From positions 1-18,790 of the forward strand of contig JANRJA010000176.1 of NCBI GenBank assembly GCA_033764315.1: a stretch of DNA of 18,790 bases, in the 5' to 3' direction. Positions 1 to 5,255 of this stretch are shown here, piece after piece. The notes under the pieces were generated by a model. The model saw nothing but the letters and a program-made list of their open reading frames with translations, was not told where the DNA came from and did not search any database. The translations under genes and the position numbers were made by a program. Every line of letters starts with the position of its first letter. Position 1 is the stretch's first letter. The stretch is from Oculatellaceae cyanobacterium bins.114. GTDB taxonomy: Bacteria; Cyanobacteriota; Cyanobacteriia; Elainellales; Elainellaceae.

Positions 1-136
1 GATGGAGCGGTGTAAAATCCTGGTCAAGAACTTTGAGCGGACGCTTGCCAATGCCACGACTAAACTCAACCTTTGCTTCATTCGGCTTATGATTAAGCGG
101 CTTGCAGCCTCTCCTTAAGATCTCAAATGGGTTCTA
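1..136 (+). mobile_element. Right end of IS5-family insertion sequence, with putative terminal inverted repeat GATCTCAAATGGGTTC(TA) at ~119-136
   Basis: The transposase stop is followed directly by a short IR-like end finishing in CTA/TA, the usual IS5-family layout. The left end is outside the window, so the IR pair cannot be confirmed. Confidence 0.7.
2..118 (+). CDS. IS5-family transposase, C-terminal fragment (gene starts before the window)
   Basis: Frame 2 translates to MERCKILVKNFERTLANATTKLNLCFIRLMIKRLAASP* (TAA 116-118). This matches the C-terminus of cyanobacterial IS5-family DDE transposases (after the W-x-x-E-R motif). Not in the ORF track. Confidence 0.85.
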   Translation: MERCKILVKNFERTLANATTKLNLCFIRLMIKRLAASP

Positions 137-190
137 TAAAAGTCTGGGTTAATCAGCTAGCCCCCATCGCAGTATTGCCACCCAAACTCT

Positions 191-1319
191 ATGGAGCCTT
201 TAACAAGCCAGGATACACAGACCCTCAATCAAAGCATTCAAAAGCTCTATACCCTTCGCAATCTAGATACCTTTGGGGTAGATGCACTGACAATTGTGAA
301 TCAGCTCGTTCCTAGCGATGCTCCCAACTTCCATTTAACTTGCGTTCAAACGAGCCAAGTGCAACATACCTTCCTGCCCGATTTTCCTGGCTTTACTCCT
401 GGACTAGAAAGGGTCATGCATGAGCACTTTGGAGAGCATCCAATCGTTCAGCGCATGCCCCAGACCCTCCAGGGAGCCTATAAACTCTCAGACTTTGTTA
501 GTCAGGAGGAGCTTCATTGTTTTGAGGGGTTTTATCAGCAGTATTTGAAGCCACTTGGGTTGCAAGAGCAAATGATCTTTTTTTCCGAATGTAAAGCCTG
601 ACTATTGGCACAAACTTGCTCAAGTCAATACAGTCCTGGTGGGATTTGCACTACATCGCCCTCAATGCAGCTTTACAGAACGCGATCGCCTCATCCTTAA
701 CCTCCTCCGCCCCCACTTGTTTCAGGCATATTGTAATGCCCAACACTGCCAGCAATTACAACAGGAGTTGAACCAACTTCAGCAATCTCTCAATTACCTC
801 GATCTAGTCATTCTGAATGGAGATGGGCAAGTCCAACAAATCACACCACCAGCCTTAGTCTGGTTGGCAGACTATTTCCCAACACAGCCTTGTCTTCTCG
901 AATTGCCAGAACACTTGTGGGCGTGGGTTAAACATCAAATCACTCATTTCACTGAAAAGCCAGACCTACTGAACGTATGTTTACCGTTGAGAATCCAAAA
1001 GGCTGGTAAGCAATTGGTCATTCGTTTAGTTGTTGAACAGCTTGGGAAGCGATACCTGCTTCTACTGGAGGAACAGACGATATCTTTATCGCAGTCGCTA
1101 GAACTATTGGAATTGAGTCAGCGAGAAACCGAGGTTTTATTTTGGGTCATACAAGGCGAAACAAATAAAGCGATCGCAACTAAACTCAGCGTTGGCATCA
1201 GTACAATTCGTAAGCATTTAGAAAGTATTTATCAGAAATTGGGAGTACAAAGCCGCACGGAAGCGATCGCACAAGTATTAGAAAAACTAGGTTTTTTACA
1301 TTCTTTGCCACTGAATTAA
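191..1319 (+). pseudogene. LuxR-family helix-turn-helix transcriptional regulator (GAF-like N-terminal sensor plus C-terminal HTH), frameshifted at a T7 run (578-584)
   Basis: ORF 191-601 ends ...QEQMIFF|SECKA*. The +1 frame from 585 reads PNVKPDYWHKLAQVNTVLVGFALHRP..., continuous with ORF 639-1319. The C-terminus has the LuxR HTH LSQRETEVLFWVIQGETNKAIATKLSVGISTIRKHLESIYQKLGVQSRTEA. Confidence 0.85.
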
Positions 1320-1455
1320 TGCTTTAACTTGAAGAGGTGGCTTGAGAAGGTTGTTACAGTAGGTACTTTGCAAATGTGCTGTAATTGCCTCGCCAGCAAC
1401 TTCAATGCAGCTTAATTTTGAACGCCGCACAGACAATTTACCAATATTGTTTCAA

Positions 1456-1612
1456 TGAGAAGCTGTTTGTAAATGGGTGTAAAGTTGGCTAAAAAGTCCC
1501 TGAAGCGATCCTCCCTAACCCTCCTTAAACAGGAGAGAACCCAGCCCTAAATCTAAAGCCTTTTTAAGGGGATTTAGGGGGATCGAAACATTGATTTACA
1601 AACACTTTCTGA
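1456..1612. mobile_element. MITE-like element (~157 bp) with imperfect 19-bp terminal inverted repeats and an internal cyanobacterial palindromic repeat
   Basis: TGAGAAGCTGTTTGTAAAT (1456-1474) pairs with ATTTACAAACACTTTCTGA (1594-1612), 16/19 with an 11-bp perfect core. Internal GATCCTCCCTAACCCTCCTTAAACAGG ... CCTTTTTAAGGGGATTTAGGGGGATC arms. Confidence 0.65.
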
Positions 1613-1622
1613 AGAGTTAACA

Positions 1623-1709
1623 ACATAACGTTTCGCGTCAGCGGTTGCCGGGATCTTTGCATCTAATCCAAGCGGTTTTGGTCAATCCGCTGCACGCGAA
1701 TTGTTAGCT
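1623..1709 (-). other. Integron attC recombination site (87 bp)
   Basis: Minus strand: R'' AGCTAAC, spacer AATTC, arm GCGTGCAGCGGATTGACC ... GGCAACCGCTGACGCG, R' GTTATGT (fits GTTRRRY at 6 of 7 positions). Arms pair TTCGCGT/ACGCGAA, CAGCGG/CCGCTG, TTG/CAA, CC/GG, with extrahelical bases C1693, T1686, T1682 all on the R'' arm. It lies 35 bp after the stop of the GIY-YIG gene, in the correct orientation. Confidence 0.85.
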
Positions 1710-2592
1710 GGCGGTCTGAAGGGAATTGACAAAACAAAATAATTCTAATGTTTGTTTTCATCACGAACCCATTTTGGATGAACAAGATCAAGAAACACGC
1801 TACCAAACCAAGGCTCGTTAAGTGAGGGGTTAATCATATCTGGTGCCCCACCAACCACATTACGAACCCTACGTAAGATGTCTATTCTTTCAGCTAATTC
1901 TAGGACAAGATGTTGGTGTTCACGAGGCAAAACCTTATAGTGTTCCCATATATTAAATATGTGTTTTGTCAGCATTGGGGAACAAGCAAACCATTCACCC
2001 TGTCGCCTATCTGATTCAAACTGTTTGTGACGCATCCGTTCTATGCTCGCCCCCCCTGGCTCAAGTGCATGGATAATAAGCTGTCCAGAAGTCCCAGTTC
2101 GTAAATTCTGCAACCGACGAAGAACATCCTTGGTTCTGCCGATTTTAACTTGAAGCCCAAAATATGGATGAGCGCTGGAGGGAGGTCCTGCCCATGTTTC
2201 TGGAACAGCCAAGATGTAATAGATGCTTTCAACTGTTCCAGACGGAAACTTCTCAAACCAATCAATCCACTTACGGGCATCCTCAGTAGCTTGATGATCT
2301 GTAGGATACTTATAAGTGGAATAAAAAATTTTACGCTCAGGCTCACTAACTTCCGCAAAGTATTGACCAGAACCATCGAGTTTAATTTCTAATTGAAACA
2401 TCAGACCACAGCCCGAAATGCCTACATACAGAATTTAGCCTTATCTTTACAATTTATCTCTGGTTGAGTTGATTTCTCTCTCCATTTTCTAATAGGTTTG
2501 AAAATTATCTTTTAACGTATAGCTAATGAAATTCTTAACCTTCGTCGATCTCAGCAGTAGCGAGTATAAAAGCAATACGCGGAGCCAGCTAA
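1629..2592 (-). mobile_element. Integron gene cassette (~964 bp) carrying a GIY-YIG nuclease gene
   Basis: The cassette start G|TTAGCTGGC (minus strand, 2593-2584) is the exact 10-bp complement of the R'' end of the attC (GCCAGCTAAC, 1712-1703), as expected for a linearised circular cassette. It contains a single ORF followed by attC. Confidence 0.8.
1745..2401 (-). CDS. GIY-YIG nuclease family protein (T5orf172/MUG113-like domain) with a small N-terminal domain
   Basis: Motifs IYYI...VKIGRTKDVLRRLQNLRTG...IERMRHKQFESDRRQGEWF are typical of T5orf172-type GIY-YIG domains. Confidence 0.85.
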   Translation of the reverse strand: MFQLEIKLDGSGQYFAEVSEPERKIFYSTYKYPTDHQATEDARKWIDWFEKFPSGTVESIYYILAVPETWAGPPSSAHPYFGLQVKIGRTKDVLRRLQNLRTGTSGQLIIHALEPGGASIERMRHKQFESDRRQGEWFACSPMLTKHIFNIWEHYKVLPREHQHLVLELAERIDILRRVRNVVGGAPDMINPSLNEPWFGSVFLDLVHPKWVRDENKH

Positions 2593-2730
2593 CTATAGAT
2601 TCAACATCAAATGTGAAGGATAATATCCTCTTTTCCCGCTGTTACCCATCCGATCTGCTGGATAATACCCCTTTACAGGAATTAAACAAAAAACTGACAG
2701 ATAACTCCAAGATTTTAGGGTGTTATCCAT
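2584..2730 (-). other. attI-like integron insertion region (core GTTAGCT plus repeated GATAA boxes)
   Basis: Core site at 2587-2593 adjoins the cassette. GGATAATA at 2618-2625 and 2660-2667, AGATAAC at 2699-2705, inverted TTACCC at 2642-2647 and TTATCC at 2723-2728. No attC hairpin precedes the core. Resemblance to cyanobacterial intI-upstream regions is recalled, not computed. Confidence 0.55.
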
Positions 2731-2777
2731 CACAAGCACTGATAAAACATTTGATTGCTAACCTCTCAAAAATTGTT

Positions 2778-3566
2778 TTATGGAGTGAAGCTTTGATTAT
2801 TTTGAATTAACCATTGCGCTAATTCACAAAACCCTTCTGACTCAGCAGCTTGTGTGACAAACTTGGGTTTATAGTGCAACCGATCGCTGTAATGCAACAC
2901 GTTGGCAACCCCTACAGAAACGGGAAAGCGATCGCTATCAAATAAGCTTTCATCATTGGGGCTATCACCCACCGTCACGATTTGTTGAGGCGAATAGGTG
3001 GGAAAAAAGTGGGTCAACACCTGCAACAATCCGATCGCTTTGTCTTGTTGTAAGGGTTTGACGTGACATTGCACGGTGCTATAGGTAAAGCCCCAGCCGC
3101 GATCGCCGCAAAAGCTACGCATGGTTTCTAAGTCGGCTGCACTCAAGCCCCTCACATCAAAGGTCCAATCGGTCAGGCGAAATCGGTTATCGGTCGATTC
3201 ACACAGGGTCGGAAACTGGGTTTGCAAGTGTTGAAACAACTGAGCCAGAGTTTGACGATGCGCTATCAAGTCAGTTAATGGCACCAGCAATTTAGGGTGG
3301 CTATCGGCATTGGGGTAAAACAAGCCTCCATTTTCAGCGATCGCCCCAGCCACAGGTAGATAGCTCACAACGCCTTGCACCCACCCGGCCGATCGCCCCG
3401 TCACAATCACGACTGGAATGCCAGCAGCAGCTAAATTATTTAATGCAGTTAGCAGATTGGGAGTGAATTTGCCCTGTTTCGTTAACGTGCCATCCATATC
3501 GGTAGCAACTAGGCGTATAGTTTTGAAGGAATCAGAACTTGCACTTTGTAATAAGCTAAGAGTCAT
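2778..3566 (-). CDS. HAD-superfamily hydrolase (subfamily IIB, Cof/SPP-like)
   Basis: Motif I LVATDMDGTLT, motif II VIVTGRS, motif III/IV K...VGDSPNDESLF. The start is set at ATG 3566 (MTLSLLQ) rather than 3614, which would overlap the divergent gene. Confidence 0.9.
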   Translation of the reverse strand: MTLSLLQSASSDSFKTIRLVATDMDGTLTKQGKFTPNLLTALNNLAAAGIPVVIVTGRSAGWVQGVVSYLPVAGAIAENGGLFYPNADSHPKLLVPLTDLIAHRQTLAQLFQHLQTQFPTLCESTDNRFRLTDWTFDVRGLSAADLETMRSFCGDRGWGFTYSTVQCHVKPLQQDKAIGLLQVLTHFFPTYSPQQIVTVGDSPNDESLFDSDRFPVSVGVANVLHYSDRLHYKPKFVTQAAESEGFCELAQWLIQNNQSFTP

Positions 3567-3590
3567 TTGGCAGAAACCATAGAACGCGCC

Positions 3591-5255
3591 ATGACAGAAT
3601 TGACCGCCGAACAACGCAATTATTATTACCTACTTGAAGCCGCCCGCACCGGGATTCACAAACCAATTTTGGCAGCGTTGTATGTTGCCCATTACAACCC
3701 AAACCTGACGGATGGCGAGGTCGGGTTAGGCATTGCGCCCATCAATCGAATTCCACCTGATCACGTTAACACCTTTCCAGAGCAGGTGCAGTATGCGGCA
3801 AACACGATTCGCAGTATTACCAATCGGCTCACGGCTCAAGGCTGGGAAGGAGGCGAGTTGTGGAATGTCGAACAGGGACGATATAGCGATCGCTTCATTA
3901 AAGAAGTCGCAGACGGTTACACCCCTCCAGCCAACGACCCAACGGCGGCATTGCTTGAAACGAGCGACTATGAAACCTTGCTGCACTCTTATCTTGAAGA
4001 TATTGCAGTCGATCATCACGCCAGTCGATTACCCGAAGATTTGGCATTTCTTGATCCAACCCTGCTGGAGTTTATTGAAGAGGTACCCCGTTATTACCAA
4101 AATCTGCCCTATCAACGTACTGCGTTGTTAGAAGCTACCCGTCTATGGCGCAAACTTGACACAACCGACGAGGCGATCGCCGCATTTAATGTCTCTACTT
4201 CGTCCTTGGCAACGGGCGAGTCCGTGGATGAAGGGTTTCTCGATCCGGTGCTGCTGCAATTCATCCAAACGGTGCCGCCCTACTATGCTGGTTATCCTCA
4301 TCAACGGGAAGCTCTGTTGCGGTTGGTGCAACTTTGGCGACAGCTCAATTCGCGGGAAGATGCGATCGCCCTCCTGCAAACCGCAGATCATGAGCAAAAT
4401 GAGTTTGAATCAGTAGACTCAGCCCTAATTGCCTTCATTCAGCGACTCCCTCAGCTCTATCAGAGCAAAGGCGAACAACGCAACGCACTAACTGAAACCT
4501 TTCGGCTATGGCACAGCCTGGACTCTCGCTCGACAGTTTTAGCCGAGTTAGGGATCAACCCTCAAATGCTCACCTCGGCTAATCCCGATCGCACCTTGAT
4601 TACAAATGCCGCTCGACAACTCGATCGAGCGTTAATAGAGTTTGTCAAGCGGGTTCCAGCCATCTATCAAGAAACGGAACCCCAGCGAGAAGCGTTGATT
4701 CGACTGGTGCAGTTGTGGCGAGGGTTGCCAGGACGTGAGGGAGCGATTCAATCCTTGCTGGATGACCTGCGTCGCATGGAACGAGCCCGCCGTGACTCTC
4801 CCGATGCACCCCCCTTGCCCCTGCCCATGACGCTGCTGGCGCGACCTGCTCAGTGGACTCCCACCAATATTCAGCTTTATGCCTCGATCATTCCCAATGG
4901 CAACTTTATCTGGGCAGAGGCGACCCACGGAGGCATGCAAATGCCGCCCAATCAAGCGACGGTTGATGCGATTGTCCGCATTGCCCAACTGGCCCAACAC
5001 GCACGCGATCGCATTGGTCGCTCTTTTCGAGTCATCAGTTGGTATCGTTCTCCTGATATTAGCCATCGAGAAGGCATCTCTTATAGCCGTCATGTTGTTG
5101 GCGATGCGATCGTCTTTTACTGCGATGGGTTGACAGGAAATCAGGTTTATTGGGCACTTGATCCCTGGTGGACGGGAGGATTGGGACGCTATCACAATTT
5201 TCCTAACCTGATCCATTTAGATGCCCGTGGATATCGAGCTAGATGGACACACTAG
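3591..5255 (+). CDS. Peptidase M15A / D-Ala-D-Ala carboxypeptidase-family protein with four internal ~60-aa helical repeats
   Basis: C-terminal GNFIWAEATHGG...VISWYRS...SRH...GGLGRY..FP.LIHLDARGYRARW is the M15_3 fold signature. Start set at ATG 3591 (MTELTAEQRNYYYLLEAARTGIHKPILAAL). Confidence 0.85.
   Translation: MTELTAEQRNYYYLLEAARTGIHKPILAALYVAHYNPNLTDGEVGLGIAPINRIPPDHVNTFPEQVQYAANTIRSITNRLTAQGWEGGELWNVEQGRYSDRFIKEVADGYTPPANDPTAALLETSDYETLLHSYLEDIAVDHHASRLPEDLAFLDPTLLEFIEEVPRYYQNLPYQRTALLEATRLWRKLDTTDEAIAAFNVSTSSLATGESVDEGFLDPVLLQFIQTVPPYYAGYPHQREALLRLVQLWRQLNSREDAIALLQTADHEQNEFESVDSALIAFIQRLPQLYQSKGEQRNALTETFRLWHSLDSRSTVLAELGINPQMLTSANPDRTLITNAARQLDRALIEFVKRVPAIYQETEPQREALIRLVQLWRGLPGREGAIQSLLDDLRRMERARRDSPDAPPLPLPMTLLARPAQWTPTNIQLYASIIPNGNFIWAEATHGGMQMPPNQATVDAIVRIAQLAQHARDRIGRSFRVISWYRSPDISHREGISYSRHVVGDAIVFYCDGLTGNQVYWALDPWWTGGLGRYHNFPNLIHLDARGYRARWTH

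Follow-up and report, generated by a model that had tools for sequence, protein, structure and literature searches.

A single gene followed by an attC-like hairpin, on a contig that carries no integrase gene, raises the question of whether the gene arrived as an integron cassette and, if so, what kind of site received it. Solitary attC sites are commonly set aside as possible false positives or attributed to insertion at a secondary site; in the present case, comparison with other genomes places one of them at a recognisable attI of another integron lineage. The stretch of DNA that was analysed (the window) is the entire contig C125, 18,790 bp long, of a 6.6-Mb genome in 251 contigs (90.7% complete). 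We consider it probable (about 80%) that the locus represents what is left of a second integron: an attI with one cassette from which the integrase gene (intI) and the rest of the platform have gone, and which now abuts a gene for a HAD-family hydrolase.

Organisation of the locus

Read along the minus strand, the HAD gene (3614-2778) is followed by a spacer of 185 nt (2777-2593), a leader (2592-2402), an ORF (2401-1745) and the hairpin (1709-1623). Past the hairpin lie 16 nt, a MITE of 157 nt, a LuxR-type gene on the opposite strand and the end of an insertion sequence (IS), at which the contig breaks; the ORFs flanking the site are those of the HAD gene, the LuxR-type gene and the IS end. 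The features are as follows.

2778-3614, minus strand: HAD-family hydrolase gene (Pfam Hydrolase_3, 2.1e-14), part of a conserved core block
2735-2777, no strand: junction that separates the attI remnant from the stop codon of HAD and lacks both intI and the remaining platform
2593-2734, minus strand: orphan attI, cassette-proximal part of about 140 nt, assigned by its homologues in relatives; crossover G at 2593, core ...GAATCTATAG|TT
2618-2628, 2660-2670 and 2718-2728: GGATAAYAYCC motifs within the attI, three copies over about 110 nt
1629-2592, minus strand: gene cassette of 964 bp, running from 2592, at the TT next to the attI crossover, to 1629, the G of the cassette's R', and delimited by 10-nt complementarity
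2402-2592, minus strand: cassette leader, 191 nt, with no DNA conservation with homologous cassettes
1745-2401, minus strand: cassette gene, 218 aa (Pfam PF13455 and PF10544, phrog_8130, AlphaFold model)
1623-1709, minus strand: attC of the cassette, with R'' (...AGCTAAC) at 1709-1703 and the G|TT of R' at 1629 (G) and 1628-1627 (TT)
1613-1628, minus strand: segment 3' of the crossover (16 nt, abutted by the MITE), read from the sequence as the TT side of the original empty attI

The MITE-like element (1456-1612) has terminal inverted repeats of about 17-19 nt and ends 16 nt from the attC crossover. Copies of 1612-1456 are present on C46 (90.8%) and C80, and its inner part (1507-1586) is repeated on at least 11 other contigs. 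The outermost 141 nt of the window (1-141) are the 3' end of an IS transposase gene and are identical over 138-141 nt to C144:1-141 and C205:6154-6291. Between these two elements, the plus-strand ORFs 191-601 and 639-1319 adjoin one another, the second encoding a GerE/LuxR helix-turn-helix domain, and they may represent one regulator gene broken by a frameshift. The sequence GCGATCGC is common in the window, which, together with the Nostocales origin of the nearest named relatives of the cassette protein, gives the genome a cyanobacterial appearance. An Rfam scan of 1-4000 gave nothing relevant, a promoter and terminator scan of 1300-2900 gave one promoter-like and one terminator-like site, neither above the level of shuffled sequences, and the best PADLOC result was a 12-bit match at E 0.022.

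The hairpin at 1623-1709

On the minus strand 1623-1709 forms an imperfect hairpin, with a DNA fold z of about -3 on both strands, and the predicted structure leaves two bases unpaired, both of them on the R''-L'' arm. The boxes of attC sites follow the consensus RYYYAAC/GTTRRRY, from which the window site departs once per box. A DNA search of the genome found four homologues of the hairpin and, when the five copies were aligned, compensatory changes were present in 11 of the 28 predicted pairs. With 31 copies, fitted to the model in a way that favours the structure, 23 of the 28 pairs had changed on both sides and 88.4% of cells were paired, compared with 29-44% when the partners were slid; none of 500 shuffles reached the observed values. 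A leave-one-out sequence profile (nhmmer, 30 copies, with the window's copy excluded) recovered the window site at 61.9 bits (E 7.9e-19) and detected 48 sites in the genome at E<=1e-3. The covariance model R1 gave 108.7 bits for the window site, and a covariance model made from the five copies gave 36 genome matches at E<=1 among the 150 candidates scored. Merging both searches gave 49 distinct sites in 28 clusters, as found by models that were built from this genome's own sites. Judged from this pairing and these profile matches, 1623-1709 is a true attC and a member of the genome's attC family.

No second attC was detected in the 18.8-kb window by the covariance model with its filters off (the next independent score was 14 bits), and the contig had no match to IntI (TIGR02249), so that it does not carry a complete integron. 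Since the contig breaks in an IS 1,611 nt (about 1.6 kb) downstream of the attC, the description as a single cassette is valid for the assembled DNA only, and with an assembly that is 90.7% complete further cassettes or an unassembled cognate intI are possible.

Three different attCs elsewhere in the genome (C99:1944, C136:546 and one on the minus strand near the start of C251) lack the GTT and run, at the crossover position, into one common sequence of about 95-135 nt. This sequence could represent either a small element or the outcome of recombination, directed in either case at the attC crossover.

The limits of the cassette

The minus strand reads CTATAG|TTAGCTGGC at 2598-2584 and the attC starts with GCCAGCTAAC; GTTAGCTGGC (1703-1712) is complementary to 2584-2593 over 10 nt. 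By simple arithmetic, a GTT followed by seven specified bases is expected about 0.004 times per 4 kb. The arrays of the same genome served as a control: 10 of 16 cassettes with an upstream attC showed complementarity of 7-12 nt exactly at the preceding G|TT, and the first cassettes of C183 and C199 showed 10 and 11 nt, respectively, whereas elsewhere in the 4-kb control windows the best complementarity was 0-7 nt. As the rule holds in the genome's own arrays, the 10-nt complement indicates that the cassette spans 2592 to 1629, and on this comparison it is the trace of a circular cassette opened at G|TT.

The original prediction, which had been made from the letters alone, thus stood up well for the cassette itself. 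It had described an attC with extrahelical bases on one side only, for which it proposed a covariance model search, a boundary at 2593-2584 that complements the R'' end over 10 bp, a circle of about 964 bp, and the absence of both a second attC and an integrase from the surroundings, and the results above agree with it on all of these.

The flank of the cassette belongs to a family of attI sites

The genome encodes one intact IntI (C16:150-1127, 325 aa, 482 bits against a cut-off of 265). The head of C16 overlaps the head of C183 by 141 nt, which argues that the five-cassette array of C183 begins at the attI of the C16 integrase, with the crossover at C183:237/238. The flank of the window cassette is of another kind: alignment of 2594-2734 to this resident attI gave a local score of 22, compared with 18 +/- 2.3 for shuffled sequences (28 of 300 scored as high), and blast gave no match. 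Thus, the expectation that an intI would be present elsewhere in the genome was correct, but the further expectation that 2593-2730 would resemble the region beside it was not, the attI of the window being of another lineage.

C112:1-400 has in common with C16 (1-210) the attI-proximal 141 nt and about 28 nt from the start of intI, apart from a 1-nt difference in a poly-A tract, and then continues into an IS-like transposase gene. It is either a second copy of the platform or a strain variant with a disrupted intI, and it is ambiguous whether C16 or C112 joins C183.

The lineage of the window flank emerged from comparison with relatives. GGATAAYAYCC occurs four times in the whole genome and three of these occurrences lie within 2618-2728. 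A DNA search with 2594-2790 recovered its first ~140 nt from 13 of the 56 other family genomes, with 32 copies at E<=0.01 and at most five per genome. Conservation stops at an identical TAG|TT in all nine of the copies that were aligned, and a cassette-like start, GTTA...GC, that differs between loci follows. In five of these nine loci an attC in the right orientation lies on the cassette side within 1.5 kb, the cassette differing from that of the window in each comparison, and in all five the cassette begins with a complement of its own R'', uninterrupted over 7-9 nt at four loci and matching at 9 of 10 positions at the remaining one.

On the opposite, non-cassette side, intI or an intI stub was found in at least 7 of the 32 copies; short stubs were searched for in five genomes only, and 25 copies had no intI detected alongside. 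The most complete example is G021:C98, where the element lies beside a full-length intI (484.6 bits) whose ATG is about 190 nt from the crossover. The neighbouring intI of G070:C82 is 81% identical to it and has one internal stop, and N-terminal stubs adjoin the element at G011:C118 (residues 1-160), G064:C1 (1-76), G021:C487 (1-52) and G022:C14 (1-60), with another at G052:C160 (residues 1-39) 1.3 kb from the element. The congener G001 has the same attI core, and the core only, beside a full-length intI on C11 that is 80% identical to that of G021:C98, with two attCs on the cassette side. In the complete integrons with this attI the intI is divergently transcribed; the window copy itself has no intI. 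An attI is defined by this layout, in which a fixed crossover has cassettes to one side and a divergent intI to the other, and the flank 2593-2734 is on these homologies the attI of a second integron lineage, at which binding and recombination by IntI are predicted. This was also the original view of the region 2594-2734, which had been called repeat-rich and taken for an attI-type landing pad; its homologues in relatives do lie between a first cassette and a divergent intI.

Short N-terminal stubs of intI, comprising the first 39-160 codons, are common in G021, G022, G050, G052 and G062, and several adjoin copies of attI. The 5' end of intI looks as if it is retained in these stubs and, as a guess, this is perhaps because it holds the cassette promoter.

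The junction with the HAD gene and the origin of the locus

The HAD gene had been described as convergent with the cassette gene. This was wrong: 2778-3614 and the cassette gene share a strand and are co-directional, so that the HAD gene is directed towards the attI and the cassette. In G001 its counterpart is 84% identical at the amino acid level and the downstream synteny is conserved. DNA synteny with this congener sets in at 2789, within the terminal part of the HAD gene, whereas homology to attI was not significant past 2734, over the 43 nt that precede HAD, where tail alignments to the full platforms were equalled or exceeded by 198 of 500 and 12 of 500 shuffles. Together, these two end points indicate that the outer platform and intI would have been lost at a junction within about 2735-2789. 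To the left of the HAD gene, NfeD/SPFH genes occupy the position of the cassette region in G001, and the sequences that flank this congener's own integron with the attI type are found on other contigs; rearrangement of the genomes is extensive. G001, which shares synteny only to the right of ~2789, showed no empty or alternative form of the window locus.

The history that we favour for the remnant is that its attI belonged to the integron lineage of the G021:C98 and G001:C11 integrases, and that the cassette would have entered at G(2593)|TT through ordinary recombination between attI and attC. Deletion or rearrangement would then have removed intI and the rest of the platform and left the attI remnant abutting the 3' end of the core HAD gene.

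No terminator-like site was found between the HAD stop (2778) and the start of the cassette gene other than one at 2416-2401, the sole one, which abuts the start codon itself. Expression by read-through is for this reason plausible, and the cassette gene may be transcribed from HAD in this way.

Alternative explanations

Because the flank is unlike the resident attI, integrase-mediated insertion at a secondary attG site (minimal 5'-GWT-3'), which would produce a SALIN and involve no attI, was favoured at first. The junction is G|TT, as such an event would leave, and insertions of this kind are shown in excerpts of Loot et al. (bioRxiv 10.1101/2022.09.11.507474). It was the clustering of the motif, three of its four copies being in this flank, and the recurrence of the flank in 13 of 56 genomes that overturned this candidate. 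The flank is a conserved element with the same crossover in nine of nine loci, it heads different cassettes and it lies beside intI in relatives, which makes an attG insertion very improbable. The simpler idea that the hairpin is a terminator or a chance palindrome, with a coincidental 10-nt complement and no cassette at all, can draw on the abundance of short repeats here, since twelve inverted-repeat pairs of 10-24 nt occur within 1.6 kb. Set against the leave-one-out profile match, the covariation, a footprint validated in arrays and the homologous cassettes in other genomes, its probability is negligible.

A less easily dismissed possibility is that the element, of about 140-250 nt, is a dispersed MITE-like repeat which carries an attI-type core and seeds landing pads. 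Relatives have up to five copies per genome, most copies (25 of 32) have no intI detected beside them, and the window copy is located at a synteny break by a core gene, all of which would suit such a repeat. Seven copies, however, run on into intI or its first 39-160 codons, as the decay of platforms predicts, and the alignment shows neither terminal inverted repeats nor target duplications. The end point of the window copy differs from that of the others, and the relatives hold many intI fragments of several lineages. We therefore consider a dispersed repeat unlikely, and retain the remnant of a second integron as the best explanation of the locus.

One intact integrase and several types of attI

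The IntI of G021:C98 shares 64% identity with the resident IntI of C16, which is its best match in this genome, and no member of the cognate clade (proteins 79-100% identical to that of G021:C98) was found in the 90.7%-complete assembly. The upstream regions of six full-length intI genes each have their own repeated motif, which suggests that each IntI lineage has an attI repeat motif of its own. Further attI-like platforms of three other types were found in the genome, most of them without an intact intI.

C199:60845-61009: orphan attI of the G021:C53 type, ending at the start of the first cassette of that array
C31:7857-8028: orphan attI of the G021:C53 type
C251:1107-1233: orphan attI of the G021:C53 type
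C77:42257-42316: orphan attI of the G021:C53 type
C55:19803-20083: orphan attI of the G050 type, ahead of the C55 array
C155:33392-33747: copy of the resident (C16/C183) attI, beside an intI stub
C44:175-388: copy of the resident attI

The last two form, with C183, the third of these sets, and the genome holds in total about ten attI platforms of at least four types and a single intact intI. The intI stub that the C155 platform retains is 40 codons long and has a stop.

Whether this one integrase runs a network of heterologous landing pads, acting at attI sites of all types, is doubtful. If it did, attI recognition would be much looser than one integrase for one attI, and orphan attIs beside core genes would be working expression slots. 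For the window site in particular, present-day service in trans by the resident IntI, as in the original prediction, is conceivable, with the odds against it; the resident IntI may still be able to use the site, if less efficiently, or the site may have gone out of use altogether. The cassette could equally well have been captured before the cognate intI was lost. As one intact IntI occurs together with orphan attIs of several types, the specificity of attI recognition can be tested here, and the genome is a natural test bed both for this and for the activity of integrase-less platforms.

The cassette gene and its homologues

The 218-aa product of the cassette gene consists of a small N-terminal beta-beta-beta-alpha domain, a T5orf172/MUG113 domain, which is related to GIY-YIG, and a helical C-terminal part. 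It matched Pfam PF13455 (1.1e-09, 39.2 bits, cut-off 22.3), PF10544 (3.6e-07, 31 bits, cut-off 20) and phrog_8130 (2e-30), and its AlphaFold model had a pLDDT of 90.3. Foldseek gave nothing against the PDB at E<=0.001, and a search of the PDB by sequence profile gave nothing below E 0.49. In a wide VIA-align search residues 1-57 alone (window 2401-2240) were matched, to dsRBD/HicB-like folds with Z <=6.5, a level flagged as common, and an rmsd of 1.8-2.9 A over 50-57 residues. The function of the protein is thus assigned at the level of the family, as T5orf172/GIY-YIG-related, with a putative nuclease activity.

Of 224 candidates, 106 were homologues at E<=0.001; these proteins have a length of about 215 aa, are 39-85% identical to the cassette protein and come from Cyanobacteria, Dehalococcoidia, Gammaproteobacteria, Flavobacteriia and Verrucomicrobia, the closest named ones being from Nostocales. 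At DNA level (blastn against the homologue loci) the similarity is limited to the coding part, 2401-1755. An attC lies directly 3' of the homologous gene in 4 of 19 loci from named genomes (Microcoleus, Nostoc, a Thermosynechococcaceae MAG and Thiohalophilus); the lack of a match at the other 15, as obtained with a model derived from this genome, does not show absence. The cassette of the Thermosynechococcaceae MAG begins with TTAGCTGGC and that of Nostoc has the attC R'' GCCAGCTAAC, in both cases as in the window, and the cassette of Thiohalophilus is the first one at an attI-like site. The gene for this 218-aa T5orf172/GIY-YIG-related protein is, by these matches, one that travels as an integron cassette in other bacteria as well, and a literature search gave no paper that joins T5orf172 and integrons.

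The attI-like region of Thiohalophilus thiocyanatoxydans (L084, ~2380-2460) has GACAGAC/TGTCTAAC repeats that resemble the motif of the resident attI (C183).

Comparison with known systems

In class 1 integrons, attI1 is a double-stranded site that has its crossover at G|TT and short repeats ahead of it. The window site is alike in its G|TT crossover and in the short repeated motifs that precede it and that differ between integrase lineages, but it has no sequence similarity to attI1, and its own motif is GGATAAYAYCC, at which binding of IntI is putative. The direct repeats of attI1 upstream of the core site are named DR1 and DR2 in a figure legend of Loot et al. The authors of IntegronFinder note, in an excerpt of PMC9024848, that attI sites other than those of class 1 have been little described and that the program does not detect them. 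The likeness to an attG insertion as described in the excerpts of Loot et al. is that an isolated cassette sits at G|TT and is expressible from a neighbouring resident promoter; the difference is that attG is ordinary genomic sequence, whereas the flank in the window is a conserved homologue of attI.

A closer parallel is the ilvD-linked integron of Xanthomonas, fixed by a core gene and with a decayed intI, which is described in an excerpt of bioRxiv 10.1101/2025.06.18.660453. In both cases the platform lies beside a housekeeping gene, intI has been inactivated or lost and cassettes remain. In the window, unlike in Xanthomonas, intI is wholly absent instead of being a pseudogene, the locus is not conserved in the congener, and an intact IntI of a different lineage, with a different attI, is resident in the same genome.

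Integrase-less attCs and decayed integrons are an already known kind, of which the window is a clean example. In excerpts of Cury et al. (2016, PMC4889954), attC sites without an integrase are called CALINs, loss of the integrase is one proposed origin and IS are linked to the break-up of integrons; single isolated cassettes are named SALINs in an excerpt of Loot et al. (bioRxiv 10.1101/2022.09.11.507474) and ascribed partly to attG insertion, and CALINs are stated in an excerpt of bioRxiv 10.1101/2025.06.18.660453 to be mobilisable in trans by a functional IntI. As in these elements, the window has a real attC and a cassette with no intI nearby, an IntI elsewhere in the genome and an IS close by. 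The default threshold for a CALIN is two attCs (within about 4 kb), and the window has one assembled attC in 18.8 kb on a contig that ends 1,611 nt downstream of it. Unlike a CALIN or SALIN, it retains an attI that can be identified by homology, and for this reason its origin as a decapitated integron is visible and need not be assumed. To our knowledge, the attI sites of cyanobacterial integrons are otherwise undescribed. What the locus adds to the known systems is a defined family of attI sites, and a genome in which several heterologous orphan attIs occur together with one integrase.
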